DNA from: Sphagnum compactum
Taxonomy: Eukaryota
NCBI GenBank assembly: GCA_965153455.1
Contig: OZ234493.1
Coordinates: forward strand, 3,968,001-4,032,000
DNA length: 64,000 nucleotides
Reading direction: 5' to 3'
Of the stretch, positions 4,771 through 55,414 are shown in pieces. Position 1 is the first letter of the stretch, and each line of letters begins with the position of its first letter. A program made the position numbers and the translations under genes. Below the pieces are notes generated by a model that had not been told where the DNA came from, did no database searches, and saw only the letters and a list, made by a program, of their open reading frames with translations.

Positions 4771-5500
4771 ATTTTAATATAGTAATATATTTTTAATATA
4801 AAGCATATGTGAATGACATATCAATATTATAGACTTGAATTCCAATAGAGAAATCACCTTGAAAAATGGGTGTTTTGAGATTGCAATTTGAAGTCAATGT
4901 TGTTTGAGGCTAAATATAGCTGTGTTTTGTCTAGGAAAATGCAAAGAATAATTATTCATGGGGTTGAATTGTCATATACATAAAACTAGTGTGAACCCGG
5001 TGCATAATGCACCCGTCGAGCTCCCCCCCGCCCGGTCCTTCTCATTGCCCACTCCGGTTTTTTACCCCGTCGACCCCCCCCCCCGTCCTTCGCATTTTTC
5101 ACTCCGATTCTTTAACTCGTTGATCCCCCCCCCCTTCCCCTGTTATATATAATTAACTTTCCGCCCCATGCTGGCCCCCCCCCCCCCCGTTACCAAGCCC
5201 TGTCACCTGCTGCTTCACCGGCCTCTCCCTCCCCCACCCCCCAAAACCTCTGTCATAGACAGACTTACTGAATTAATATATATGAATTTTAATATAGTAA
5301 TATATTTTTAATATAAAGCATATGTGAGTGACATATCAATATTATAGACTTGAATTCCAATAGAAAAATCACCTTGAAAAATGGGTGTTTTGAGATTGCA
5401 ATTTGAAGTCAATGTTGTTTTAGGTTAAATATAGTTGTGTTTTGTCTAGGAAAATGCAAAGAATAATTATTCATGGGGTTAAATTGCCATATACATAAAA
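4771..5500 (+). repeat. 215-bp direct duplication (4771-4985 and 5286-5500) flanking a 300-bp insert
   Basis: Both copies run attttaatatagtaatat...atacataaaa and have equal length, with about 7 substitutions by eye. Confidence 0.95.
4986..5285 (-). mobile_element. 300-bp non-autonomous Helitron-like element
   Basis: The minus strand begins TCATATATATTAA and ends ggtgcat-t-atgcacc (7-bp hairpin, 4999-5013), gggttcaca, CTAG|T. The 3' end closely matches that at 34942-34971. GC-rich interior in an AT-rich context. Confidence 0.8.
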
Positions 5501-10299: not shown

Positions 10300-11045
10300 C
10301 AACTTACTTAATGCAATCAATCCCAACATGTTTATGAATTGTGATCACTTCACACCTAAGAAGCAAAAAGAATGTGTCAAAGACCGATGAAAAAATGATT
10401 GATGTCAACAACATCAATGAAATGACTTAATTATAAAATCAATCCAAACATGTTTAGGAGTCAATCACTCAACAAAAGAATGTGCTAAAAATGATGAAAA
10501 AGTCGATGATTAATGACAACAACATCAATGACTCAATTACAAGAAAATCAATCCAAACAAGTTTACAAGTCAATCACTTAGCACAAGAATGTGACAAATA
10601 TGATGAAAAAATCGATGATTGATGACAACAATATCAATGACTTAGTTATAAAATCAATCCAAAGAAGCTTACAAATCAAATCACTTAGAAAAAGAATGTG
10701 ACAAAGATGATGAAACAATTGATGATTGATGACAACAATATCAAGGACTTAGTTGTAAAATCAATCCAAACAAGCTTACAAGTCAAATCACTTAGCAAAA
10801 GAATGTGACAAAGATGATGAAAAAATCAATGATTGATGACAACAACATCAATGACTTAGTTATAAAATCAATCCAAAATCATGCTTACAAATCAATCACT
10901 CCACTCTTAAGAAGCAAAAGAATATGATGAAGATGACGAAGAAGAAAACGATGATGATGATGATGACGACGACGATGAGCACTTAATTACAAAAATCAAT
11001 CCAAACATGCTCATTAATCAATCACACCACACCCAAGAAGCAATT
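10300..11045 (+). repeat. Minisatellite of ~108 bp, about 6-7 copies
   Basis: Unit aagaatgtgacaaagatgatgaaaaaatcgatgattgatgacaacaa...aaatcaatccaaac...atcact recurs near 10367, 10474, 10583, 10691, 10798 and 10916. Confidence 0.9.
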
Positions 11046-12424: not shown

Positions 12425-14369
12425 TAGATCTGTGATAACAGTGTGTTGATGCTAATTGTTTTAGCATGGAATTGAACAGCTTCAGGAAGATGAGACAGTG
12501 GATGAGACAGCAGAGTCTGCAACATCGCTCCTGCGATGCTCCACTTATGAGCTTTAGTCTCAAGACTCTTCCCGGAATCAGTGAGAAGAAACAGGGGCAT
12601 CTTAGGAGGTGAAAGTATTCCAGGTTTTCTAGTTCTGTGTTGCTCAAGGTTCTCTTTTTTGGTTAGTTCTGGGACCAAATATTGTGTACATGGTTCTGGC
12701 TGGCTGAACTCTGGTAGGACATCCCTTGCTTGCAGTAGAAAAGTGGGAAAACCTATTGCAAGTAGTAGTAGTTATAAGGATGTAGTATCTTAAGGGGCTT
12801 CTGGTGTGTAGCTGTAAGGATCTGTAGTAGTTGTGGCATGTTCTGTGACTTTTGTAATTCTTTCATCAATGTTTATATCGACATAAAAGCACATACGTGC
12901 TGAGTTTGCGGAAGAACTATTGCATGTGTTGATGGGAAATTATTATGATGGTATATGATGCACTTGAATGAATAAATCCTTTGAAGAATGATAGAATATC
13001 ATAGTTGAGTTTTTATGGGTGTTTGCTGTCTGCTAAGAGTGATGCTAGGTGGTGTGACTAACACCCAATTGAGGCTCCTTGACAAGCACAGAGACTGCAG
13101 CCCTATTAAAACAACACACATGACAGACAACAAAGTTCCATTGTGATGTCAGTTTTCTCTTGTTTCTTCGAGCTAGAAAAGGGATGATTAGCATGTGCAG
13201 CCTTTACCAATAATTCTAAGAAAGATTGATTGCTAACCCATGGACTAAGTACTGGATTGACAAGCTCTCTGAGGACGTCTGTGTCCTGGCAGGCCTCTAG
13301 AACAAATATGTAGTGTCAAAAACTTCTTGGAACAACAAACAATCAAAGGGATAATGAAAAGGGTGATATTTGGGAGTCAAAAAACGCACTCAAACCACAC
13401 TCAAAGCAGGAGGTAATAATGCTTGCAACAATAATGCAGCAATATGATGATGATCATCATCTTTTTCAGACAAGAATGACATTAAGACACTGTCATGATA
13501 CCCAATTGCTCTCCTTTTATGATCACAAAACCCTTTTGTATAGTTCAAAAGTTGAGTGACCAAAGCACACACAACAGTGTTTCAATCATTTTGCAATCCG
13601 GTTTTGACACTAACTAAAAGATTTGAGATCTTCCAGAGAATTTTGTTTAAGTGGAGAGAGAATTGGATCAGCTAGAAAAAGCTCAGGAGCAGCAATTACT
13701 TAGAGGAGGTTATGGATGGCAATCAGTTTGTTCATCACTGTTGCTGCTACTGCTACTTGAGTTTTGATTTTGTGATCTTTGTCATTATATCTTGGACTCT
13801 ACTTCATTCCCCCCTTCCCCGAAAAAAAAAGTTCTATCAATCAATCAAGCCAGAGGAGCCCTGGATGTGATTCTGCCACATTTTACCTTCCTCCCCTTCC
13901 CCAACTTCCCACCCAATTCCTTTCTTCCACACAAAAGTGTCAAACTGTTGCAATCATTTGCATGAATGGAACATTTTTAAAAAAAAAAGGTGCAAACCAA
14001 AATTGTTAAGAGATCTGGGTTTTCAGAGAAGAAGAAACTTGGGTTTTGCTTGTGATACATGCATGCCCAAAGGAGAGGGTTGAGAGATGCGATCTTTTGC
14101 TTCCTTCCTCCGTCCCCTCCCCCTCACCCCCCCCCCCCCTCCCAAATCCATCATCAATGTACCTACAATAATGAACCCATAACAAAGATTAAGAAGAAGG
14201 TTAATGATCTTAAAGAAACCAAAATTACTTTCTCTGCAAAGACCAAATCAGATGCAAAAAAGGAAAAAAAATGAGAGGAAAAAAGGAAGAAGAGTCTGCT
14301 GCAGAAGCAAATCAAATGCAAATAAAAATACTACTTTGTTTGCTGCAGAAGAGACAAAATCAGATTCAA

Positions 14370-14373
<4 letters not shown>

Positions 14374-14410
<37 letters not shown>
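14374..14410. repeat. (CT)n microsatellite
   Basis: Direct dinucleotide run. Confidence 0.9.
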
Positions 14411-14412
<2 letters not shown>

Positions 14413-14955
14413 CAAGACACACAAAATCAACACAAAAAAGATTATGACAAAAATAATAAAACTGCGCTGTTCTGAAAAACAAAGTAAAGTAGCCAAGTGG
14501 TGTGTTGAGGAGGGCAAAGGGGGTTTAGGGTTTACAAATAAACCTAGGGAAGGAAGGGACGTACGCGTCTTCTTCTTTCTTCCTTCCTCTTCTTCTATCA
14601 TTTTTTTAGGGCTTCTCTCATGTTCTCTCCCATCCTTGCTTCTCCTTTCCGCCCCCTTCGGTCGAAAACCCATTTCGGAGTTCCAGCTAGTTTGTTTGTT
14701 TCTTTTTCTGTGCTCCTGTTTCTTCTTCCCTTTGCAATGAAGTTTATTCGTTTTCAATCCGGAGCAGAAACAGGAGTTGGTTATGGAGCGGTGATCTTGC
14801 TTCTCTAGCAGCAGTAGCAGTAGCAGCAACAGCAGAAGACTTACCCTTCTTGATCACTGAGCTTCTTCTTCTTCTTCTTATTCTTCTTCTGCTTGTCATA
14901 CAGGTTTTGAAGAGGTTGGGTTTGTGGGTTGGGTTGGTTTGTTTGTTTTGCAACT

Positions 14956-16048
14956 ATGTCAGCGGTGTGGTGGGATATGGAGAGCGTTCCGCCTCCAACA
15001 CACAGTCTGTTGGAGCATACGCTTGCTTTCCACAGGGCAGGGAATTTGGGCTTCTTTGGTGTGCAAGCTCCTGTGATTGTGCATGCTTACGGTCCCGTGC
15101 AGGCGTTGTCTGAGGTTGTGTACGATGCTGTCACCACATCAGGCATCTCCCTGCTACATAGCCGCGCTTCAGCAAGTAAGTCAAAGCACTAGCCTGATGC
15201 TTCTTAGATCTTCGCTTGGTTTTTTTTGGTTTTCCTTTTACCCTATGGCTGCTGCTACTGCTCCTGCTACTGCTGCTGGTAAGGATCCTGCCTCCACTTT
15301 GTCCATTTCCAGCGCTTCTTTCTCACATACAATTCCTCATGAGCAGACCCATGAGTCCTCCAGCTGCTGCTGCTATGGATCCTGTCTCCACTTTGTTGCT
15401 TTCCCAACACTTTCTTTCTCACATACAATTCCTCATGAGCAGACTCTTGAATCCCCCAGCTGCTGCTGCTATGGATCCTGCCTTCACTTTGTTGATTTCC
15501 CATGCTTTCTTTCTGACATTCAACTCTTCACGAGCAGACACATGAATCCCCAAGCCCCTCTATGACTCCTCCTCATTTCAGTTGAATTTCTGGAGTTCGG
15601 TATCAATGGATTGCTTTATTGTAATTGCCAGATTTCCTGATTTCTGTGAACCAGATCATGCTTGTGTCTTTGCAGGGTTTGCATTGTCATGTTACTTCAA
15701 AATGTTGGTGGGAAGATTTGTCTACAATTTTTGAAGATATTATTTATTGTTTTGGTGCACATACACAATATTTTTTGGGGTGTTGCCCTTTCTTCAATTG
15801 TACCCACAGATTCTTATCTTCCTGTTGTTGCTGCTACTGCTGCTCTGTATTCAGAGCTGACTTGCAAGGTTTTAAAATGTGGATGGGTCAAATTTGGATG
15901 TGATTTCTCTCATCATGTTACCTTCAAAGTTGTGGTTGTGGAGATTCCTCTGCAATTTCATAGATATGATTTGCTCATCTAGCAACTCAAAACAAATGCT
16001 TACATTTCTGTGAAGTAATTTGAGTAAATGTTATGGTTTTCTTCTTCT

Positions 16049-16092
<44 letters not shown>

Positions 16093-16946
16093 CTTACAAA
16101 AATATGTATTTGTTTGTGTTGCTGGCAGGGTATGAGAATGACAATAACATGAAGGGAATGATGGTGGACATACTGATATGGGCCTTAGATCATCCACCAC
16201 CTGCAAACATTTATCTGATATCAGGCTTACAGAATGATAGCTTCAAAGACGTGCTACATCAGCTACACATAAGGAGGTACAATATCTGGGGGGCTGAAAT
16301 TTTTCCAGCAAATGTATTCATGCCATTATTTTCAACTCAGTCAATCAAGTTAAATGGAGAATCGACAAACCCTAAGTGTCCACCAACATGGCTCCCACCC
16401 AGTCCCCGGCCCCCAACAACCACGCAGACCTCCAGCAAACGTGTGAATCAAAAGAATACAACTGGGCGAGGTCGAGCACGGGTGCCTATAAGCACTACTC
16501 CTCCAGGAGTGTCTGTTGCAACTGAGGGAGAAGTAAAAGCTTGGCTTGAAGAATTTGCCATGAGCGAAAGAGGATACATGGGCATGAGTCTGGGTTCAGT
16601 TGGGAAGGAATTCCAGAATCAACGGCATAAGAAGCTAGATCACAAAGCTCTGGGATTTGTTACCCTCAAGCACCTACTCATATCTTTTCCATTTTCAGCT
16701 GTGGTACGCATTGAACATCCAAGGACTGGAGTTTATATCATGCTTGCAGCAGCAAATGGTGATGCAGCCAAAAGGAAAAAACCGAAAGTGGGTACTCAAC
16801 TAGAGACACTTACTGAAAATGAGTTGAAACATGTGCAATCAAGAACTGCTACTGCCACCCCAATCTTTTCAGATTGGCCCTCATCCAGTAAGAGCACTTC
16901 ATTTGATGCTGAAGGCAGGAAGACCCTTCAACACGGGCTGCATTAA
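14956..16946 (+). CDS. NYN (PIN-like) domain plus LOTUS/OST-HTH domain protein, MARF1/limkain-b1-like, with a degenerate catalytic site
   Basis: Exon 1 14956-15175 (MSAVWWDMESVPPP...SGISLLH), GT at 15176, AG at 16127-16128, phase-compatible exon 2 16129-16946. Exon 2 has MMVDILIWALDHPPPANIYLISG...LHQLHIRRYNI (plant NYN) and GMSLGSVGKEFQNQRHKKLDHKALGFVTLKHLL (LOTUS). Confidence 0.88.
15283..15555 (+). repeat. 96-bp tandem repeat (~3 copies) in the NYN gene intron
   Basis: tctcacatacaattcctcatgagcagac at 15321 and 15417, a diverged third copy at ~15511 and a partial copy at 15283. Confidence 0.85.
16029..16087. repeat. (GA)n microsatellite in intron
   Basis: Direct dinucleotide run. Confidence 0.9.
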
Positions 16947-19876: not shown

Positions 19877-22800
19877 TCATACATCATATAGCATTCCTAC
19901 CTCAAGGTAATTTGCAGGTGGAATCTGTAGTTCCTTGATTGCTGACCTGCATATCAACCTGAGCACAGCATAAATTTTGTTGATAGCAATGCGCCCAAGC
20001 CAGCCAGTGCTGCTACTAGTGCGCACTGTGATCTTCCCCACAACATGAACAGCATCATGGCCTGTAGCACTCTGCAGTTCCACCAAGTCCTCTGGATCAT
20101 ACATGTCCACAGGATTCTCAATTGATTGATATTGAAGATCAGAAGAAGTCCCCTTAGAAATCTGAACAGTTGAGAGCTCCATGTGGTCTTCAGACTGAAG
20201 GTAGGATTGGAGACTTTGAATTGCTTGATTCTTGAACTTGTCACCTTCACAGTCAATGACATCCAGGTAACCATATCGGGCAACACAGCGGTAGACTCCT
20301 TTGAACCCCATCTGTCCAACTAGAAATCGTTCTTCAGGTGACACTGTCTTTACAGGGATGAACCTGAATGTGGTGAAGATCAGGACTTGGTGAAGTGTCC
20401 GTACATTCTTGACATAATGGCTGATTATTGGAGGAACTCCATCAACTAGATCAGTATAGAAGAAGCAGATCCCAGGCACACGTTGCATTCCTGCACTTGA
20501 AAGAAGTGCTCCCAGGTTGTCCAGGCTGATCATGTGGTTCATTTCATATTTGCACTTCTTTTGCCTGCCATAGCTCCAGGTGAGACTGATGAAGAGAAAG
20601 AAAGCTGCAAATCCAAAGGGTACCCAACCCCCCTGTGGGAGCTTGTTCAAGACAGCAGTGAAGTACACTCCCTCAATGGATCCAAAGATTGTTAGGAAGA
20701 GCAACACCAGAGGCCATGGAAGATTCCATATCACAAGCATCACCAGGGTCATCAACAGTGTAGAAATAAACATCACTCCCAACACAGCCACACCTGGCCA
20801 CATCCAGAGCAGTTCAGGTCGAACAGGGTACAGTTCAGTTCAGTACACACGGGTGTAAAACCTTCACAATATGACTGAAAAAAAAGTGGTACTAAAGGGC
20901 CAAGAAAGATTTGGTAAATCTTACCAAAAGCGTTCCCGACCTGTGTTGCATTGCGGAATCCAAGGACCACTGCCACACAGAGAACCATGAGCACATAATT
21001 GACTTCTGGTGAATAAACCTGACCTTCCTGATCAGGCGAAGTGTGCACCATCTTGACACGGGGGAAACACCCCAATGCTATAGTTTGCTTCATAATTGAG
21101 AATGTTGCTGTGATGAGAGACTGGCTAGCCACAATTGCAGCAAGTGTGGCCAAAATAAACAATGGCCAGTATACTGCTTGTGGGATTGACTTGAAGAAAG
21201 CGTTCCGATGATCCATGGGGTGGCTGATGAGGTACGCAGTCTGACCGGCATATGTGAAGAGACATGATGGGTACAAAACAGCTGCGAATCCAATCTGGCC
21301 ACAGGAAGACAGAGAATTCATGTTGTGTCATGGAAGTGAAGTCTGAACTCAAGAAGTTTTCTTGGGATCAACTACTGCATAGAAATGTGAATACTGATAG
21401 ATCAAGGATGCAAGGAGAGACTGCAAGACACTTCGTTGAAACAATGTGTGGAGCAAGTACCCCATAGATAAACAACAAACATACCCATCAATGAACATCC
21501 TTGAGGAACAATCCAGCATGAAGTCTAACTCCTTCAAATCCCTCACCTGGATTGCTCTTTTGTTAAAATGACCTAGGTCTGCAAACATTGCTTCCGCTCC
21601 TGTAAACACAAAAAAATTGGAACAGTTGTAATTGATTTGTATGATGCAGCTGTGTCAACTTGCTTCAAGCAAAAGGCAAGATACAAGGAAAGAGGGGACA
21701 TACCTGTAATACAAAGCACCACTCCACCTAGTGCGACCCAGCCCTGCTTCTGGTTTCGAACAAAATAGTCAACAATGTAGTGTGGTGACACAGCTTTGAA
21801 CACAGTGGGATAGTGAACCACTATATTGTAGATTCCCACAATGGGAGTTGCCACAAACCAGGCCAACATGATTGGAGAGAAAAGGAAACTGACACGATGT
21901 GTTCCAAATCGTTGCATCATGAACACTAGTACTAAGATGACTGCTGATACCCAGGTCACAACAGCTGCCACCCCAGATTATATCCTTTTGGTTAGAACAG
22001 CCCTCCATCGAAGTGTTAGTTTGATTTACCAAACAAGAAGTCTAAATATTGGCATGCATTTATTGCAATATGAAACATGTCCTATCATCCATTCAATAAA
22101 GCACAATGTGTCACCATGGGCTTAGGAAACTTACATCCAGAGATTGAGTTAGCCTCACTTTGAATACCTGCCATGGCTGATAAGACTGCAGCACCGGAAC
22201 AATTTCAGTTCAGATGTTATTCAAGCACCGACATTCATCCACATCACAGTTGCCCTCAAAACTATTACAGTGAGAGACATCTCCACTGCTAACCAGAAAT
22301 TCCTTACTTCATGAGGTGCTAAAAGGATCAGAGGCCCTGGGATTCAATTTTGTCAGATAGCAACATAAGGAATTTAGCTTACTGTCAACACAGCAGCTAA
22401 GAGGTAATCCCATCCAGTGAGGAACTTCCTGCTGCATCATGTTGAGCCATAATAGTGGGCAAGAGTGGTCCAACAAGTTAAGCTATACGATTAGGATTTT
22501 GGCAAAGTGATCTCAGAAGGCCAAAACAATATTTGAGACTGAGGTACTATATTCTTACCAGAGATGGCAGGAGTAAGGATGCCATCACCAATGACCAGGC
22601 AGGTGCCCAGCATAACTACAACAAACAAGGTAACTTGAGCTCCCTTGAAATTTTCAAGCAGGGCAAGAGTTTTTTTGTGAACAGGACCACTTGACTGTGA
22701 GATTTGCTCTTTTAATTTGACACTATCAGATAGTGCCTCGGACTTCTGGCCCAAATTAGCATGCTGGCGGAGCAGAGAATACAATGCAAATGTACCACCT

Positions 22801-23932
22801 GCTCAACCACACAATCAACAATTTGGAAGCCTTCTCCAACAACCTTGTGGCTTTTGGTACATTAAGTTTGCATTCTAGAGGCACAACAAGGTACCATATT
22901 AAAAAAAAGTTGTTCAACAGCTTAGGAGGCTGATAGTACAGCGTCCCAAACTTGTGTGTCACTGAGTCTGCACAGAGAATCGCTGTTGAGTTTATTCATA
23001 AAGAGCAAATGACTTTAAAGATGCAACTTACACAATTCTCTGCCTTGACAGTGGACACTATTAACATCAGAGAGGAAATATAAAAGACATCTCAAGCAGA
23101 CCAACATGATGAAGATTGTACAAACCTTCGCCATGATCATCAGCCTGAATAACAATAAATACATATTTCACCAAGGCGATCAATGTAAATGTCCAGAAAA
23201 TAAGGCTCATTACTCCCAAAAAGTCCTCCTCCTTAGGGTTTGACAGGTTGATACTAGGCCAAACATACAGTGGGGATGTACCCAGTCCTCCAAACACAAT
23301 ACCCAGTGTCTGATATGCCAGGAATAGAGTTCCCCATGTGGTGCATTTCTGCATCCCCCTCACCCAATAAACAGCATCACTTGGTAGGTCAGCAATTCTT
23401 CAAGTCTCTGTCAGCAATTCCACCAATTTTCTCCCCAGGCTTCAAGTTGCTGAACAGACGGATCGTTCACTTTCCCATCTCACTCTTTAAGGCTCCTCAT
23501 GCTTGATTTGCAACTCATCAAAATTCCAGCAGATGGTCAATTGGTTTGAATGTGTCGAACAGAACACAATCACTGCTCTACTAACGTACGCATAATTACT
23601 GCACTGAAGCCACTGAGAAGACAAAAGAACAATACCTGTCTATCTGCATGAAGTGGCACCATTTGTGTTGAAAACTGCATGTCTGATACTTTTCTTCGAA
23701 GCTGGCAGTGTTTGTGATGCACCTCTACTTTCCCATTTGCTGCTTCTTTCACATTCAGCCTCTCCGGGCCTCCAAACCCATTAGTATTCATCACACCATT
23801 GCCGACTGGATGGTCCATGCTATCACCATATTCCTTATCAATCTGGTGCTCAAAATTCAGATCATCACAGCTGTTCTGGTCATGTTCATGCAGTGTGCCA
23901 ACTTCAAGATCCTTCCCATTGGTGGTTGCCAT
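19877..23932 (-). CDS. HAK: KUP/HAK/KT cation transporter, HAK17-like (cluster IV), 8 coding exons
   Basis: Exons 23932-23636, 23348-23126, 22798-22559, 22185-22135, 21964-21704, 21599-21547, 21294-20925 and 20793-19877, all GT-AG. Motifs [89 protein letters not shown] and C-terminal LEVGMLYDV. Confidence 0.96.
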
Positions 23933-30870: not shown

Positions 30871-31920
30871 TGAATTACACCCAACCATTCATTAATATGA
30901 ATTACTTAATCCCATTAACTTCACCCCTTTGGTAAGGGATAGTAAGTCTACCACTAGTAATTAGTAATTACTAGGATGCCTATGGCACTAATTAGTCTAA
31001 ATATTTTCCAATAAAAACATTCATTTTTTTCCCCACATATTTAGCAATCCTCTTTTGACAATCCTCCCACAATGTGCTTCATGCTTCTTATTGTTTGAGT
31101 AACTTGTATTCCATATATTGAACCAATATTTTGAATTTATCCTTCGAATTTGCAAGGTTCATTACATGACTAATAGTAATGTTTGTTGCATCTTGTTGGA
31201 ACTATGAGCAACAATGTTGTGGAAAGTAAATGCAATCAAAACTAATGATTTGAAGGTCCAGTATATGTGATGCATGTTATAACCTTCTTTTTACCCAAGA
31301 ACCTAACCATGTGACATGTTATAGACATGATATGAAACAATCACCTCATAAATACAACAATGAAAGCATGTGTGATATTTGTGAATCCACAACCCAAACA
31401 ATGCCATAAACATGTTATCAATCCATTCATCCCATCCTTTTGGACAAGCTCAATAGCTTGCAAGCCTAGCCTTGAAATTGTTAAGGGAAGAGTTTTCCTA
31501 GTCAAATTTCTTCAACATGTATGGAAGCAAATGAAACAAGCTAAGTGGTAACTTGAACGGTAGAAGTATGAGCAATTTGCATTCAACCATTACATGTTAA
31601 TCAACTTTGTTCTTCACAAGTTTTAAGTAATGATTTTGGGCATCTTGGATGTTTTTCAAAGTGTGCAGGTCCTGTAGAACAAGATTCACGTGCAATGAAG
31701 ATGGATGGATGTGTGAAGGCATCCCAAGTTCACTTTGATTTTTTAATCCATATTTGCGATGAAGTGGACATATTACACAAATATTTGTTGCCTTTAGTGT
31801 GTATTAGAGGATGACACCTTTGTTATCCCATTTTTGTGCATGGTAGTTGGGATGCAACTAGGGATCATTTTAGGTCAATACTTGTTTAACAATCTCGCCT
31901 ATATTACTAACATTGATAAT

Positions 31921-34900
31921 TACATATATTAAAGGAAGAATGAAGCTTCCCCTTAATCCGAACGGACAGTAGCTAAATATAGCGAGGACGTCGTGAAACT
32001 TTCCATCCATCTGTTCCGTCATTCATCCATCCATCCGTCCCGTGATGGTGTGTTTACCCCGACAAGCTTTGTGATCAGCTCTTCGATGCGGGGGAGAAAG
32101 AGTGGAATACAGATTGCTACAGCAACAAGAGCAGCAGCGACAATAGGAAAAGACAAATTATGTCGCTCTTGAAAGAGAAGGAGACGACTACTCGGATTGA
32201 GAAGGATGCGGCGGATAATAAGAGGATGCAGTTGGAGATGAAGAAGAATGCTGCAGATTTTTCTTCTTCTGCAATGCTCATGGTGACGAGGGATTTGATG
32301 TGTGCGGAAGTTGTTGTTGAAGAGTAGCTGACTCACATTCATCAGATCCAGAAGAACAGAAGAAGATCAATCTGCAGTGTTGTTAAGAGATTTGATGTGC
32401 GGGGAAGTCCTACAGTGGCCTACTGAAATTTATAATGGCAATACTGAATCCTTAAGATTATGTACAACCATGCTGCCGTTTGATGATTACACGAAAACCA
32501 GAGCAAATTCCACCAGCAGAAGATGCAGCAGCATCCTTTTCTTCCACACCACAACTGTGTAGTCTCTGATGCATCTGCAATGTCTGAAATTTGCACTTGG
32601 TACAAATCAGGAGCATGAGTTCACTCTTTCTCTCATGTTGTGTCTCTCTTCCAGTGAAATTTTATCACTTACTGGTGTTTGGCATTATGCAGTTTGATGT
32701 TTTTGGAAATGCACTTGGATTGCTTGTAGCTCATCCAGTGACACCCTTCATATCTATGCACCATCTGGAGTTGATTGAACCAGTATTCCCAGGGCCGATT
32801 GCACTTGAAGGCCTGAAGCAACTGATGACGGCCATGCGTACTGATCATGGAAATTTCTTTCAGCAATCAATTTGCTATGATCATGAGCTCGGGTTGTCAT
32901 TCTCCATTTCATTAGGGTATGTTGTACAGGTATTCCCGCAGATTATTCTTCCTCGAACATTGACGATTGTTGAAACTTCCTTTACAGCTTGGAACCATGA
33001 TAATCATGACCTGGAGTTCAACTTTGACACACAGCATGTACCCATGTCCATATGCAAGCATCCATTCCTGTTTTACATGGAAGAAATGCATGTTGTGGAA
33101 AGCAATAGACAAACAGTCAGCATGTATAAGCGGTACTCAAAGGTGGATGAAACAAAGAAACATGCCTATTGCTGGTTCCACCACATGGCTCCTCAAAGGC
33201 TCAAGCAAATTACAGTTGTTATTGATTTTGTGGCCATGCAATGGTACATGGTAAGTCCCTCATGGTGTGTGCCTCAATTATGTATTTCAGTTTGGGGCCT
33301 GCCTATTTCTCATGTGAGCATAGTTTGTAGTCAAGTCCATGACAACAGAATTGCTGCAATTGTTCTGCCATGAATACACCTGGGGTTGTCATTGCTTCTA
33401 TAGCCCTAAATTCAAATGCTTAATAAACAAAGAGAAAATTTACAAGAATTTGGTGTGAAAACATTAAGTTTTTAGCTTCAAAAAAATTATGTTTTAATTA
33501 GTGAAGAGGTGAATTGCTTCAATTCATGTAAAAATTGTGATTGTTAGTATGTGTGGAATGCTTATATGCTTATTGTTCCACACCAAATGTATTGTTTATT
33601 ATTCAATATATATACTATGGTTGACCTTTGACTGAAGGCCTTATTCTTCTAGCAAAAAACAATATTGTGATTGTGGAACTTGAAAGCAAAGTGGGGTGAA
33701 ATTTGGTAGGTGTAGCATATTGAATGGAGAACCTTCAATCCATTGCGGTGAGTTGTATTGTGGAAATAAATTAGCCTAGCAGCTTGGCATCTTTACGGAG
33801 TGGCATCAAACACCATAAAACTTATCCTTATTTTTGGGCAAAAATGGATTCATACTGGATTTTTAATTTAAATAAAATGTATTCATGTTAAATTATTGGA
33901 ATTAGAAAAGGTTCATTACTTCAATAAGTTTTAGTACTTGATATTTTTTGATAAAAATCTTTGTCAAATACACTCACAAAAAATGAAAGGCTGAAAATAA
34001 CACATCCCTTCAATGTAACGAGTAAAAGATACTAAAGTTCCCCATAAAGTCAGGTGATTAGGGGGCGAAAATGACCACTTTCGGCATAATACGGGATCAA
34101 ATGCTTAACTGGGAATGAAATTTTACAAAACAAAGTAACTGGGACACCAACATCATTCAGCATCATTTTGTTATATGTACCGTCAAATACACACACCTGT
34201 GCATTAGGCATGTTAAATGAAGCTTCCCCTGAATCCGTCTCGTCGTCCCCCTATCCATCCGTCCCGTCATGGTCTGTTTACCCTGACAAGCTTTGCGATT
34301 AGGTCTCTGACGCAGTTTTCGGTGCCTGCCTTGAGCAACAACGAGCTGGGCATGCCGGGGGCCATTAGACCCACGCCCCGTTTCTGCTCTTCTCTACTGT
34401 GTCCTAAACTTGACACCGACACCAAGATTCTTCTTTTTCTTTGTTTTTTTGTTTCTTTTTTCTTCTTCTTCGCATTAACTACCCTGAAACCAAACCCTGA
34501 ACCCGTCAAAACCCTGAACCGACCAAAACAAAGGCGCAAGCCAAGGTGCAAGAACGCAACAGTAGACATAACACACTCTTTGGCAGCGAAGCACACGAGA
34601 TAGCGGAACAGGAGGCGACGGTAACGGGCTATTGGGTTCCTACAGAAGATGAAGGAGAAGCAACGAGGAGGAGGTGTAGACCAAGGGACGCCATCGCTGC
34701 TGCTGCAAGCAAAGCTTCTGGGAGGCAGCAGGGGTGTAAGCGCACTGACGTAGGCGATAAGGTAGCCAAAACGGTGCGGTATGTGGGAGGAAATAGAATT
34801 GACCGGTCTGGAACCGGGCGATCGAGCGGCCCTTGAGAGCGACCGTTTTGTTTGGCTATGTGAAACTATGCGGACGCCGTTATTTTGGAACTGTAGTTTG

Positions 34901-34971
34901 TAGTTGTAATTTTGTAATATGTATCGTCAAATACACACACACCTGTGCATTAGGCACGGGGTTCACACTAG
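31921..34971 (+). mobile_element. Compound non-autonomous Helitron carrying a captured gene fragment
   Basis: 3' end is the cctgtgc-attag-gcacggg hairpin (34942-34960), a 7-nt spacer, CTAG (34968-34971), then T. A truncated copy of that end is at 34173-34210. The 5' module aatgaagcttcccct...tccatccgtcccgt.atggt.tgtttaccc.gacaagcttt occurs at 31939 and 34216. The left boundary is approximate. Confidence 0.7.
32693..33423 (+). pseudogene. 3' fragment of a DUF604/Fringe-like glycosyltransferase gene
   Basis: Exon 32693-33250 (FDVFGNALGLLVAHPVTPFISMHHLELIEPVFP...QQSICYD...SISLGYVVQVF) with AG/GT ends. The next exon from 33331 reads SSP*QQNCC, similar to the family motif SPRRQCC, with an in-frame TGA. 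N-terminal exons not found. Confidence 0.85.
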
Positions 34972-37900
34972 TTATATATTGAATAGTTGAAAGAGGCAAC
35001 TTAATCTCCTTAATAATATGTATTGCAACTTTGGATTCTTCAACATCTAAATATTCCTATGCCACATCCACCATGGACATGCCATTTGAAATACTTGCAA
35101 TGATCCAAACACCTTTTGAATTTGTGGTTAGAAAGTCACAACTTATTCCAAAACCATCCCCCTCCACAATACACACATTGGAAATCGGGAGGATCCTTGT
35201 CCACATTTAATGGGGTCACATGCAATAAAAACATCTCCAATAAGAGTTCATTATGAATTTTAAGAGTGACCCATTGCTCTATAAATCAAATAGGTGTCAA
35301 TTTCACATACTCAACAACCCCTCAAACCTAACTATAACTCTTATTTCATTTTTTACAACTATATTAAATAAGATTTTCAAAACACCAAACTCCTCCAATT
35401 GCCATTCGATTTTGTGTTGCTTCCCAAAACAACATAGACCCACCACCACACTAGAAGGAATTGTTTGACAACTAATTATACCTATAATGTGCCAAAAAAC
35501 CCCAAATAAAGCCTCAAGTCATATATCGCAATAATTTCAATAAATTTGTTATGTGAGTACTTGAAACTTTGCAACAAATATCCAACATTTCCTTTTTACT
35601 CATTTGAAGGTTTCAAACCTCTACATTATTTTAGAGATTTGTTGTGAATTTAAAATTCATGGGTTTGCAACATCAAATTTAAGGTTTGATATTAATGTCA
35701 ACACAATTATGGATCTTTTGCCCAACATTGTCACAATATTAGTTGCCATGTTATGCATTAACCCACATTACATTGCAACATGCATCAAATTCAAAAAAGG
35801 ATAATCACCTAATTAAAACTTGAAATTCACCCACTTGGAATACTTGGATGAACACACATGGATTGATTGATTTTGTGCATCCGGATCTGTGAATTTGATC
35901 AATGTATTTTGCACAATGCACTTCAAAGATCATGACCCTAGTACAACAAAACACTCAACATTTTTCAAATATTTACAAGAAAACATGCAAATTTAAATCC
36001 AAACTTGAAAGTTGCAACACTTTCACTCAACAATTTTCTCATTGTTTCATTGAAATTTTACCAAATATCTTTGTTTTTCGTGATTTAACTATTAACACTT
36101 TCACAAATGTTTGCAAATATGTTACTAGCAACTTGTTAATAATTTACTCGCGCATATTTGTGAGGTAATTACCATGGTAAAAGGTTCAAATCAAGCAACT
36201 CAATGACAACCAGACTAAGACAAGGCCGAGAACAAAATTAAAACTTCCACGTCAAATTTGTGTTTGAAGAAAAGCACACACCAAATCCATAGCATTAAAG
36301 TTACAGAAGTTGTTGCACAAGCAAACTCACAAGGAGCATTGAAACTCTATTCAAAGACTAGAAGGATTAGAGGCGCAACACGACTAAAAAATGAAAATGA
36401 AAATGAACACAACAAAATGCATGCGCAAAAGGTGTTGGGAAATGTAAACCCTAACACAAGGAACATCCTATGTTGTTTGCATGCCTTCCATGAGGATGGG
36501 GATGGCATGGTAGGTTATGAATTCAACATAACATGATGACATGGGGGTAGGTTTGGGCAAAGAATATGGGACAAAGTTAGGTGTTATTGGGAACATGTTT
36601 GGGGAAACCATTGGGGAACTTGGGGAACATTTTGGGACCTTGTTTGTAAATAGCTATTACAAAATGAACTATAATTCACTCAAGTTACATTTTAATAAAA
36701 AAAATAAAAAATCACCAAATCAAGCCATAACATTTTTTTTTCACATCGACAAACGAGCCTATTCAACACCCTTTGTATATTAGTACACTAGGATTATAAC
36801 CCTTGTCTGTATGTAGACCGAGTTAAAAACTAGGTCTATTGGGTGCATGTTGTAAGGGAGCCAGTTTTGTCCCTCAACACCCAAGAAACACTATCATAAT
36901 TATGATAGGATACTACACTCTAAATAATTTCATTACTCATATGACAATACCATAGTAGATCATGGAAAATATAGTAATTTAAAAATAATAATTTTTATTT
37001 TATTTTATTTTATTTTTGAAAAAAAATTATTCGTTTTGTCAATGTGGAAATTGACCCTAGACGACGATAGTGAACAGATAAAAAAAGAAAAAGAAGGTAA
37101 GGCAAAAATTGCAATAGTGAGTCTGTCTGTGTGTGCACAACTTGGGTTGCAGGATGGCTATTGTGCAAAGGAAAATCCCTTACCATGAGTTAACAGCCAC
37201 AGTAAACTAACACCCATTAGGGTAATGCAGTGGATGGATGGTTGATGGATGAAAAATTATCTATCAGTGGGCTCATGTTCTGTGTTACCTGGGATGGTGG
37301 TTTACCTTAGTTGTTATTTTTATTTTTTTATTGACCTTTTGTTGTTGCTCAATTCATTAGTATTTGAAGGTCTTAACTTAAATAAGATCTTTAAGACTTG
37401 AAGCTTCTTATGTAGCAAAGTTTGCAAGTGTTTGTAAATGAGTTGTTCTTTATGCCTTGGGGGTTGTTGTTGCTTAATTTGAAAATGCACTTCATGTTTT
37501 GCGCATGTTGTGTTGGCTTAATTTTTGTTTGTCACGCCTCTTGCTTTCATTTCTATCATGACAAGAATATTCTTGGTTCACAATGGGTTTCACTTTTGGA
37601 TTGTTTTCAATTGCACATGCACGACCATATACACTTTTGCTTTGGGTTCCTATCGAAACAAGAATTCTTTGTTCACAATGGGTTTCACTTGTTGGCTCTT
37701 TCAAAAAAACCATTTTTTGACTCTTTTTCAATTGCACATGTATGACGACCATCTACATATGGAGGTTTGATGTACTATTGGGAAAAATTGGTGTTTTTTT
37801 AAAAAAATTGAACACCTCAGCTTGGTCCTAGTATTGGGTCCTTTTTAAAACTTTTGTACCTCCCTGGTCCTGGAATTGGGTCCCAAGTCTGATTTGTGGC

Positions 37901-38117
37901 TAATAGGAGATAAGTATTGCCTCATGTCCCTACCAAGCTCATGACACCATGCCTACTATAGCTTGGTAGATGTTCATCATCCATTGACGATAGCTTGGTA
38001 CATGTTCATCGTCAATGGTGAAGTTTGTGCAAATTAATGAAAGTTATTGCATATGATTGTGTCATCATGGAAAAGTAGTTTGTGGTAGGTGATAAAGATT
38101 TTGTGTGTAATAGAGTT

Positions 38118-38232
38118 ATCCGTAAAGTCAGGCGATTAGGAGGCGAGAATGGCCAGTTTCGGCATAATAGGGCATCAAATGCATAACTGGGAATGAAAAT
38201 TTTACAAAAGGAAATAACTGGGACCCAAACTA
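38118..38232 (+). repeat. Dispersed repeat shared with 34040-34150 (inside the Helitron)
   Basis: taaagtcagg.gattagg.ggcga.aatg.cca.tttcggcataat...tcaaatgc.taactgggaatgaaa is present at both sites. Confidence 0.8.
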
Positions 38233-53900: not shown

Positions 53901-55338
53901 AGAATGGAGATGTCCACCTTCTGACTGGTCAAGCTTGCTGAGCTTTGAAGGACTTTGCAGAGGAATTTCTCGAGAAAGATCATTCAATGGAAGGCTTGGA
54001 AAATACTGAAAGCTACGCTTATGTTTCCCTGATCCCTTTGCTGGTATTAGTTTCACCTGCCATGGGTACATCAGTTAGATAGTTGGTGATGCAATAGCTA
54101 CAAAACTGACAACTATTGACTCCATCATGACAGGGATACCTGAACTGTCTTCAAGCATTCTCAAACCCTAACAAATTGTTGCTCAATTCCTCTGGCATTA
54201 AGCTCAGAATTGGTTGTTACATGCTTTATGAGCTTGTTGTGCAAAAGTTGATTGCATGCTGTTCAGGTCTATCAACCAAAAGCTACCTGAGAAATCAGCA
54301 AGATAGGGCCTGACTGACTTCTCCACTTAAGGTTTAAGACTTACAGCATAACAGTTATCAGATATGCACAGCTTGAAAACAAAAGGCTGCTATTTGATGG
54401 AGAAGACAGGAAGCAACTTCAAGTGAAAGAGGCATTACTGTAGCTCACAATACCAGTGATTGATTGTGTCAGAACAGGAAGATAAGCACACCTTTTTGGA
54501 GGATGCCATTGCAATCTTTAGAGGCTCGGATTGCATGAAAGACAAGTTGGTTGTCGACAGGTTTGACTGCTTGTTCATGGCATCTCCTCCCAGTGTATTT
54601 GACACTGCACTAAGATAGTCTTCATTGCTTGTCTCCTTAGCTTGTGCTGCAGCCCATTCACGGCGTAATCGGTCCATGTAATGCTCTTTTGCTTTCTCTA
54701 CCCGCAATGATCCACCTTTCCATTTACATCCATTGTACTGAAACGCCCACCAGTAAATCAAGATATCAAGATACCCTGCCCTCACCTTTCAAGGACGATT
54801 TTAGGTTCACATCCAACCTTGTTTCAATTCCCAGTGGGTTCACACACACACGCAGACACAAACACAGACAAAAACAGACACACAGGAAAGAGCTTGAACG
54901 CTTTGCATGGCTCTGATCTTGAGCTAATAACGAAGGGATCTGCCACAAGGAAAGGAGCAGGAGAAAAGTTCAGGTTAAATCTGCACATACCGCACTGAAG
55001 AGTTTGCGAAGGCTAGCCTGGGAAGAAGCTTCGAACTCCACATAAGCAAAGCCACGATGAGCGCCAGCAACAGCAGCAGAATCAACGCCGGCCTTGCTCG
55101 GAATCATCTCAATACGGTGCACAGATCCTAGAGGTGCAAAACGCTGCTCCAAATCACTGATGCTCACTGAAGGTCCCAATCCTCCTACAAAAAGCCTCAA
55201 CTTCACTTCCCCAACCTCCTCTTTCTCCTCTGTCTTCCTCTCCTGCTCTCCAGCCGTCTTCTCTTCTGCCATCCTCCTCCTCCTCTTCGCCTCCCCGACG
55301 CTTGCCGCATCCACAACGTTGGTCATCATCATCACCAT
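50990..55338 (-). CDS. ROS3: RRM protein, REPRESSOR OF SILENCING 3 / NOL8-like, multi-exon
   Basis: Exon 55338-54991 (LRLFVGGLGPSV...RGFAYVEF..SSQASLRKLFSA) and exon 54737-54492 (YNGCKWKGGSLRVEKAKEHYMDRLRREWAAA) match the ROS3/NOL8 N-terminus as I recall it. Further exons from 54056, ~53010-52500 and ~52035-50990 carry a D/E tract, KSSW and a C-terminal SF.KS...E.EW...K motif. Middle exon boundaries are uncertain. Confidence 0.88.
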
Positions 55339-55414
55339 CACCGGCTGACCCGTATCTCTCACTCTATCGCTCTCTCGCAACACCCTCTCTCATTCTACGA
55401 AAGCCTCAGCTCCA

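Follow-up and report, generated by a model that had tools for sequence, protein, structure and literature searches.

A chimeric Helitron-type insertion carrying captured cyclin and DUF604 gene fragments in the peat moss Sphagnum compactum

A stretch of 64,000 nucleotides (nt) on the forward strand of Sphagnum compactum contig OZ234493.1 (assembly GCA_965153455.1, positions 3,968,001 to 4,032,000; hereafter the window, in whose coordinates all positions are given) contains a chimeric, non-autonomous Helitron-type insertion of 3,052 bp at 31920–34971 on the plus strand, preceded by A (31919) and followed by T (34972). In its anatomy, the insertion very probably represents a head-to-tail fusion between two related elements. 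Element A (31920–34210, +) comprises a 5′ terminus, a 5′ module, a fragment of a cyclin gene, a fragment of a DUF604 gene, and a terminator that is cut short, and element B (34216–34971, +) has a shortened 5′ start and an intact terminator. Overall, the reading we favour, and consider reasonably probable, is that of a two-element Helitron-type chimera produced by end bypass. The window has the composition of AT-rich plant DNA, and the insertion lies in a gene-poor, AT-rich part of it between host genes.

That 31920–34971 behaves as a Helitron-type insertion is supported by an empty site, an A|T target without duplication, a terminal hairpin with CTAG, and copies with unrelated flanks. Reads and contigs of four sequencing runs were placed on 31400–35500 at 90% likeness; several runs containing parts of this interval carry the label moss metagenome. 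In run X13, from a related moss of another species that is ~8% diverged in the flank, a contig of 1,592 nt passes from 31919 straight to 34972, skipping 3,052 bases, and goes on across 34972–35488 with 40 differences from the window. Three letters at the joint fit either side, and the shorter side measures 97 letters. From 31751, another X13 contig jumps to 35043. There is no record of the X13 library type; we read its data as DNA because the skipped ends fit GT..AG in none of four registers and because the intergenic flanks are evenly covered. The preliminary description of this DNA had proposed looking for an A|T empty site in relatives, which is what the first of these contigs provides.

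Further copies, as well as the donor gene described below, came from one scan of metagenome contigs that returned 21 loci. The 5′ flank ends in A in three of three cases (the window, locus L015, and one expressed copy in run X22), and CTAG is followed by T at all four 3′ ends found in the window and the 21 metagenome loci. No matching target-site duplication was found between the two flanks of L015, and at 31919/34972 the A|T target is without duplication, allowing for a junction ambiguity of 3 nt.

The 3′ end of the insertion is formed by the intact terminator of element B (34909–34971, +). Its hairpin (34942–34960) has a 7-bp stem and a 5-nt loop and is followed by 7 nt, CTAG (34968–34971), and T, in agreement with the hairpin and CTAG|T that had been placed at 34971 beforehand. 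The hairpin folds at −6.1 kcal/mol (z −2.8; equalled by none of 200 shuffles), and hairpins of the intact ends of this 3′ family range from −6.1 to −8.1 kcal/mol (z −2.4 to −4.1). Hairpin and CTAG also occur in loci L001 and L015 and in a 300-bp sibling within the window (4986–5285, −), which starts with TC and ends with hairpin, CTAG, and then T. A 19-nt terminator pattern has two matches in the window, compared with 0.01 expected, the second at 4985–5003 on the minus strand. When 31801–35100 was compared with the whole window, 34945–34977 matched 5012–4980 on the opposite strand (91%). Right after 34972, 414 reads of run X21 leave the window with an agreement of 0.41, and these therefore stem from many copies with different flanks; other X21 reads join the window only from 34937 (391 reads) or from 34883 (131 reads). 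The sibling has a G-rich interior and is flanked by 215-bp direct repeats (5500–5286 and 4985–4771) that are 97% alike; this arrangement of one flank on both sides of the element (4771–5500) looks like either a 515-bp unit repeated 1.4 times or a duplication that arose locally and spans the element.

At the opposite end, the 5′ terminus (31920–31938, +) is 19 nt long and starts with TT instead of TC. In L015, the same 27 nt are identical bar one difference and follow an unrelated flank, and the expressed X22 copy departs from the window just upstream of the terminus, at 31918. The first copy of the 5′ module follows (31939–32090, +), collinear with L015 and bearing an internal duplication relative to the second copy, which opens element B (34216–34313, +). 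Modules had been proposed at 31939 and 34216, and both are present: they have a common start motif (31939–31960 and 34216–34237), and 31994–32082 repeats as 34218–34306 at 79% over 89 nt. The association of the module with CTAG ends elsewhere also holds, as L015 has 5′ terminus, module, and CTAG end on one contig. The module itself had no matches in a genome-contig set or in a viral-contig set, Rfam gave none over 31500–35400 at E up to 1, and the open reading frames (ORFs) at 32046–32327, 34267–34926, and 34501–34836 had no Pfam hits above cut-offs. L015 shows two local irregularities, namely a 63-nt tandem duplication (L015 positions 1227–1341) made of 25 nt of flank and the first 38 nt of the 5′ end, and, within the 5′ module (1440–1620), an array of about three ~41-nt tandem repeats that is missing from the window copy.

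Two host gene fragments lie next to each other downstream of the first module. The cyclin fragment (32091–32537, +), which was absent from the preliminary description, corresponds to the N-terminal coding region and carries an in-frame stop and a frame-shifting deletion. It matches two proteins, P0033 (461 aa, Cyclin_N at 1.5e-19) and P0034, over 32091–32541 with 87%–92% identity, and tblastn divides the match into two segments (32091–32357 and 32353–32541), with the stop within the first. The cyclin piece adjoins a piece of DUF604 intron, with a few shared bases at the joint. The DUF604 fragment consists of the 3′ part of donor intron 1 (32538–32692, +; 155 nt, with the same boundary in L001 and L015), exon 2 (32693–33250, +; 186 codons, frame open), and the 5′ part of donor intron 2 (33251–33397, +; 147 nt), and donor homology stops at 33397. 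Exon 2 matches the Pfam DUF604 profile at 2.3e-52 over profile positions 67–247 of 256, and its best relatives are P0001 (Sphagnum-named, 528 aa, 89%) and P0018 (S. fallax, 91%), in line with the bryophyte host that had been proposed beforehand.

Homology between window and donor is limited to 32538–33397, where nucleotide identity to the donor-type contigs L004, L002, and L003 is 93.5%–94.7%. Contig L004 holds the intact donor gene, with exon 1 (residues 1–310 of P0001, 99%), exon 2, and exon 3, and L002 and L003 are further contigs of the donor type. In L004 and L002, donor exon 3 sits ~200 nt beyond the capture boundary, and it is absent from the insertion. A tblastn search with five full-length relatives found no upstream DUF604 exons in the 64-kb window (other hits, E ≥ 0.75). 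Because upstream exons are missing from the window and an intact three-exon donor exists on other contigs, the DUF604 piece is supported as a captured fragment, judging from these alignments. The preliminary description was thus right that an intron-containing DUF604 fragment had been captured, and its suggested search for an intact donor and other captured copies succeeded in the metagenome contigs (L004, and L001 and L015, respectively); the contrary case that it had raised, of upstream DUF604 exons splicing into 32693, failed in the window. Its wording of DUF604 3′ exons with their intron has to be corrected, as there is a single exon, the second of three, with parts of both introns. A degenerate exon 3 with a stop near 33330 was also considered and was rejected, the donor alignment placing that stretch in intron 2.

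The remainder of element A up to its terminator (33398–34164, +) is collinear in L001 and L015. It includes a fragment resembling a miniature inverted-repeat transposable element (MITE) at 34030–34151, which matches 38108–38230 at 85% and is an unrelated repeat shared within the window. The MITE-like repeat is very high-copy, contig depth in the bin 34003–34139 reaching 7063 in run X9 and 3660 in X13; other copies of it continue differently past 34145, and some contigs lack 33873–34127 (joint 33872 to 34128). Read depth along the insertion was taken from X21, a Hi-C library for which depth ratios are rough, with both directions summed. The flank has a mean of 2.9 over six bins, the two 5′-module bins reach 21 and 27 (~7–9 times the flank), the 14 bins across 32085–34002 have a mean of 14.4 (~5 times), and the bin 34825–34961 reaches 271 (~90 times).

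Locus L015, which is full length, is collinear with the window between the 5′ module and 34210, and L001 is so from its contig start, equivalent to window position 32422. Beyond 34210, each of the two loci has a complete right hairpin arm with CTAG and then an unrelated flank. The two DUF604 boundaries coincide in all three copies. In the 1,785 columns that these share, identities are 95.2% (window–L015), 95.4% (window–L001), and 96.6% (L001–L015), and the counts of private substitutions are 52 (window), 31 (L015), and 27 (L001). Across 846 captured columns, 14 fixed differences separate the three captured copies from two donors. The common boundaries together with these fixed differences from the donors point to what was probably one capture, amplified afterwards. 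Since at least three copies that are 95.2%–96.6% alike have the same boundaries, the DUF604 capture is old and was amplified, and it did not take place recently at the window locus.

The captured coding sequences have decayed. In L015, the exon has frameshifts and a stop. Ratios of nonsynonymous to synonymous divergence (dN/dS), from Nei–Gojobori counts with small numbers, were 0.15 between donors (4 nonsynonymous, 7 synonymous), 0.90 between the window and L001 (17 and 5), 1.01 between the window and L002 (19 and 5), and 0.59 between the window and L004; the range for the window against the other four sequences is 0.59–1.01. The cyclin and DUF604 fragments in element A are pseudogenes now. 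The preliminary description had named RNA reads as a check: polyA reads of X22 do cover the exon, spanning 32633–33317, but with donor letters and donor splicing. Every listed exon site is non-window (27 of 27 reads at 33021, 21 of 21 at 33222), and 17 reads exit at 33253 into sequence coding the start of donor exon 3. We read the exon RNA as donor-gene transcripts and not as products of the window copy. No RNA reads fell on 32085–32632 or 33455–34002.

Some copies of the captured fragment have entered published gene sets. The translation of L001 (positions 194–892) equals the S. fallax model P0018 (BDL97_08G151600) at 100% over all 233 aa, and P0018 begins within intron 1 and reads on into intron 2; it is a pseudogene carried on a Helitron and annotated as if it were a gene. 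Three more proteins seem to be models of this kind, namely P0020 (S. jensenii), P0021, and P0023, the last of which is a fusion of 5′ module, cyclin fragment, and DUF604 fragment. P0017 was considered as a captured copy and rejected, as its 97% identity to L002 and L003 marks it as a read-through of the donor.

Between the two elements, the terminator of A is broken. The truncated copy (34165–34210, +) has left arm and loop but breaks off 3 nt into the right arm and is without CTAG, which upholds the earlier claim of a broken terminator at 34173–34210 cut in the right arm. It is 92% identical to the final terminator (34165–34210 versus 34909–34956) and, compared with other copies, 15 nt short, lacking most of the right arm and CTAG. 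In X21, 44 reads from other copies extend beyond 34210 through a complete right arm with CTAG. The truncated terminator folds at −2.6 kcal/mol (z +0.47), compared with −6.1 (z −2.8) at the intact end. There follows a junction of 5 nt (34211–34215, +), which, read from the alignment, match neither terminator nor 5′ module. The alignment of element B (from 34216) with the 5′ terminus begins at position 20 of the latter, the first 19 nt being absent from B. Its interior (34314–34908, +) is a multi-copy non-coding repeat with a depth ~6 times the flank. An antisense ORF of 219 aa in element B has five predicted proteins as relatives (67%–76% identity, no Pfam domain), which we read as spurious models over the repeat. 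X22 polyA reads in the orientation opposite to the donor transcripts span 34277–34687 at 11–32 times coverage, and all carry non-window letters (61 of 61 at 34508); they are therefore transcripts from another copy of B. A-rich low-complexity and CCCTGAA-like motifs occur within 34277–34687.

The assignment to a Helitron class, the coding status of the exon, and the separateness of element B could each be construed otherwise. In the HELIANO study (PMC11417382), the strict definition of the Helitron-like element class HLE1 includes a 5′ TC, and class HLE2 has 12–16-nt terminal inverted repeats, of which the right one is followed by a stem-loop, and inserts at a T|T target. The insertion combines a hairpin with CTRR, an A|T target, no terminal inverted repeats, and multiple copies with unrelated flanks, as in HLE1; the 12–16-nt repeats of HLE2 are absent, and T|T fits only on a 1-nt shift of the junction. 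The family with the TT start is accordingly treated here as a 5′ variant of HLE1 and called Helitron-type, strict membership not being claimed. It is highly improbable that the element is instead a Helitron2/Helentron (HLE2), or a terminal inverted repeat (TIR) transposon with a 3-bp target duplication (T|T target or TTA). HLE2 elements are reported from S. magellanicum (PMC11417382), the insertion junction can be shifted by 1–3 nt, and the 5′ end is TT and not TC, all of which would suit such an identity. However, no inverted match of the 5′ terminus to the 90 nt at the 3′ end is longer than 7–8 nt, a length that is below the 12–16 nt required and is reached by 27–113 of 500 shuffles across the three A/chimera forms, the flanks of L015 lack a matching 3-bp duplication, and CTAG is followed by T in four of four copies. 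HLE2 identity was rejected with the inverted-repeat test no better than shuffles, and a PIF/Harbinger-like TTA duplication of 3 bp was rejected on the mismatched L015 flanks and the lack of inverted repeats. That the DUF604 exon belongs to a real host gene at the window locus has a negligible probability: its frame of 186 codons is open and similar fragments are annotated as proteins in Sphagnum genomes, but no other DUF604 exon lies within 64 kb, the exon sits in a polymorphic insertion, dN/dS is ~0.6–1.0, and all exon RNA carries donor letters and is spliced to an exon absent from the window locus. It is also very improbable, though somewhat less so than either of these, that B is no separate element and that a segment at ~34207–34952 was inserted or duplicated inside the terminator loop of A, leaving the last 15–19 nt as A's own end. 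The terminator pieces do form a 46–48-nt direct repeat (92%) around such a segment. Yet on either side of the break, the final terminator departs from the A-type seen in L001 and L015, with an extra CA unit and two substitutions upstream and TTCACACTAG in place of the A-type TTCAAACTAG downstream, which argues against A's own displaced end; moreover, the interior of the segment is an independent multi-copy repeat, and the segment would be without transposon-like ends.

How the two elements came together is a closer question. End bypass is favoured because the chimera has one complete 5′ end and one 3′ end and because the Helraiser, bat, and maize systems offer parallels. Element A is an older, amplified carrier, which in a single ancestral history acquired a piece of a cyclin gene's first coding region, followed by exon 2 of the DUF604/Fringe-like gene. 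Without the last 15 nt of its terminator, the A of this copy can no longer signal a 3′ end, and the chimera therefore has exactly one usable 5′ end, that of A, and one usable 3′ end, that of B. At a donor locus, a Rep/helicase, presumably encoded elsewhere and acting by rolling-circle mobilisation, would start at A's 5′ end, pass the broken terminator, and stop at B's, and the 3,052-bp unit would then be pasted between A and T at the window locus. We give such a one-step arrival of the chimera, by terminator bypass and composite transposition, an even chance. The empty site, which lacks both halves, fits one-step arrival and assembly in place alike and hence does not confirm the snapshot of terminator loss and read-through that the preliminary description had suggested. 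Several points weigh against the end-bypass reading: none of the 21 loci has the exact A/B junction; one-step transposition needs one step more than assembly in place; and junction-like joints elsewhere (34952 to 31938 with one letter between in an X9 contig, and 34206 to 34215 in five X22 reads) differ from the window junction and may be from the orthologous locus. In addition, the empty site comes from one contig of one run of unrecorded library type and a different species, X21 reads at several sites never have the window's letter, leaving the presence of the insertion in that individual unsupported, all three element-A 5′ ends (the window, and L015 twice) start with TT where TC is canonical, and a Rep/helicase was found in none of the 103 ORFs of the window. 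The chief alternative, possible although less likely than arrival as a unit, is that the chimera was assembled at the window locus and never moved as a unit. Either A and B landed adjacent and a small deletion took the last 15 nt of A and the first 19 nt of B, or the repair of a break within a resident B used an A element as template by way of the shared module, leaving a 5-nt filler at the return junction. Assembly in place saves a step, and the X13 empty site is equally compatible with it; Helitrons are reported to insert near or inside Helitrons (PMC3288121), and bat ends abut 5′-truncated neighbours (PMC4778049). Ends are also locally unstable in this family (the 63-nt duplication in L015, paired terminators in X9, and the position of 4986–5285 between 215-bp repeats), and the 5 nt at 34211–34215 resemble repair filler. 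On the other hand, a second Helitron would have to land at or beside the end of the first, and an exact deletion would then have to leave one good 5′ and one good 3′ end, and joints of terminator left arm and 5′ module in the X9 DNA contig and the X22 RNA reads hint at fused forms in more than one place. Another X9 contig joint, 34212 to 34936, places two terminators of the same family 6 nt apart, the first with a variant right arm, and such paired terminators are a sign of clustering of ends in this terminator family.

Maize Helitrons routinely have internal pseudo-termini and capture several genes, and the phenomenon is textbook for maize and bats. In the reported data on maize helA, which captured genes stepwise (Dong et al. 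2011, PMC3288121), multiple termini occur in 28.7% of elements, an extra internal 5′ terminus in 17.6%, and internal 3′ termini lack CTAG in 99 of 100 cases. The moss chimera resembles helA in its internal pseudo 3′ terminus, extra 5′ terminus, several gene fragments, and real CTAG end, but differs from what is described there in its moss host, a pseudo-terminus cut inside the hairpin and not point-mutated, the TT start, and only two recognisable fragments. For Helraiser, the 3′ hairpin is reported to act as terminator, and once the hairpin was deleted, downstream transduction rose from 11.7% to 36% or more (Grabundzija et al. 2016, PMC4778049). Loss of the palindrome with run-on to a downstream stop, as in those constructs, is the mechanism proposed here, although the Helraiser work assayed a reconstructed bat element in human cells and the moss case is drawn from sequence only. 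Natural Helibat copies with de novo 3′ ends beside 5′-truncated Helitrons and a compound two-Helitron element are reported in bats (PMC4778049, PMC4224331). In HelibatN539 (Thomas et al. 2014, PMC4224331), the captured host segment is described as lying between two Helitrons, whereas in the moss chimera only 5 nt separate the elements and the gene fragments are already inside A. HelenSM92 of S. magellanicum, an HLE2 element (PMC11417382), comes from the same genus and shares rolling-circle transposition and a captured domain; in contrast to the 12–16-nt inverted repeats and T|T target given for HLE2, the chimera is without demonstrable inverted repeats and ends in CTAG. The same study lists 2,762 HLE1 and 555 HLE2 elements for S. 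magellanicum (Table S10). Our literature searches yielded no account of Helitrons that capture genes or have multiple termini in Sphagnum or other mosses, although subscription papers and supplements may contain one.

Taken together, the empty site and the donor gene document peat-moss Helitrons of canonical type that capture and amplify intron-containing fragments and form multi-terminus chimeras. Such behaviour is known mainly from maize and bats, and the HELIANO study does no more than count Helitron-like elements in S. magellanicum. The captured fragment, intron sequence included, has been translated into at least one published gene model of Sphagnum and into several that are unnamed, and models of this kind inflate gene counts and the sizes of the DUF604 and cyclin families. 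The locus would also lend itself to asking, in a natural setting, if half a hairpin is still able to end rolling-circle transposition. A more far-reaching scenario, which we regard as doubtful and offer as speculation, is that the chimera is a recent bypass product in a moss lineage where canonical-type Helitrons still move, and that the carrier family feeds chimeric ORFs into Sphagnum gene sets, some of them transcribed or giving rise to small RNAs with the cyclin and DUF604 donor genes as targets.

Elsewhere in the window, nearby host genes comprise a multi-exon K+ transporter (K_trans, K_trans_C), an ORF with an OST-HTH/LOTUS domain, and an RRM ORF, with spans at 19880–23399 (−), 16053–16943 (+), and 54973–55389 (−). 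Long (CT)n and (GA)n tracts lie inverted at 14368–14434 and 16029–16092, ~1.6 kb apart, and the ORFs between them have no Pfam match. Tandem arrays occur at 2096–2997 and 10421–11021, with ~4 units of ~200 bp and ~5–6 units of 107 bp, respectively.

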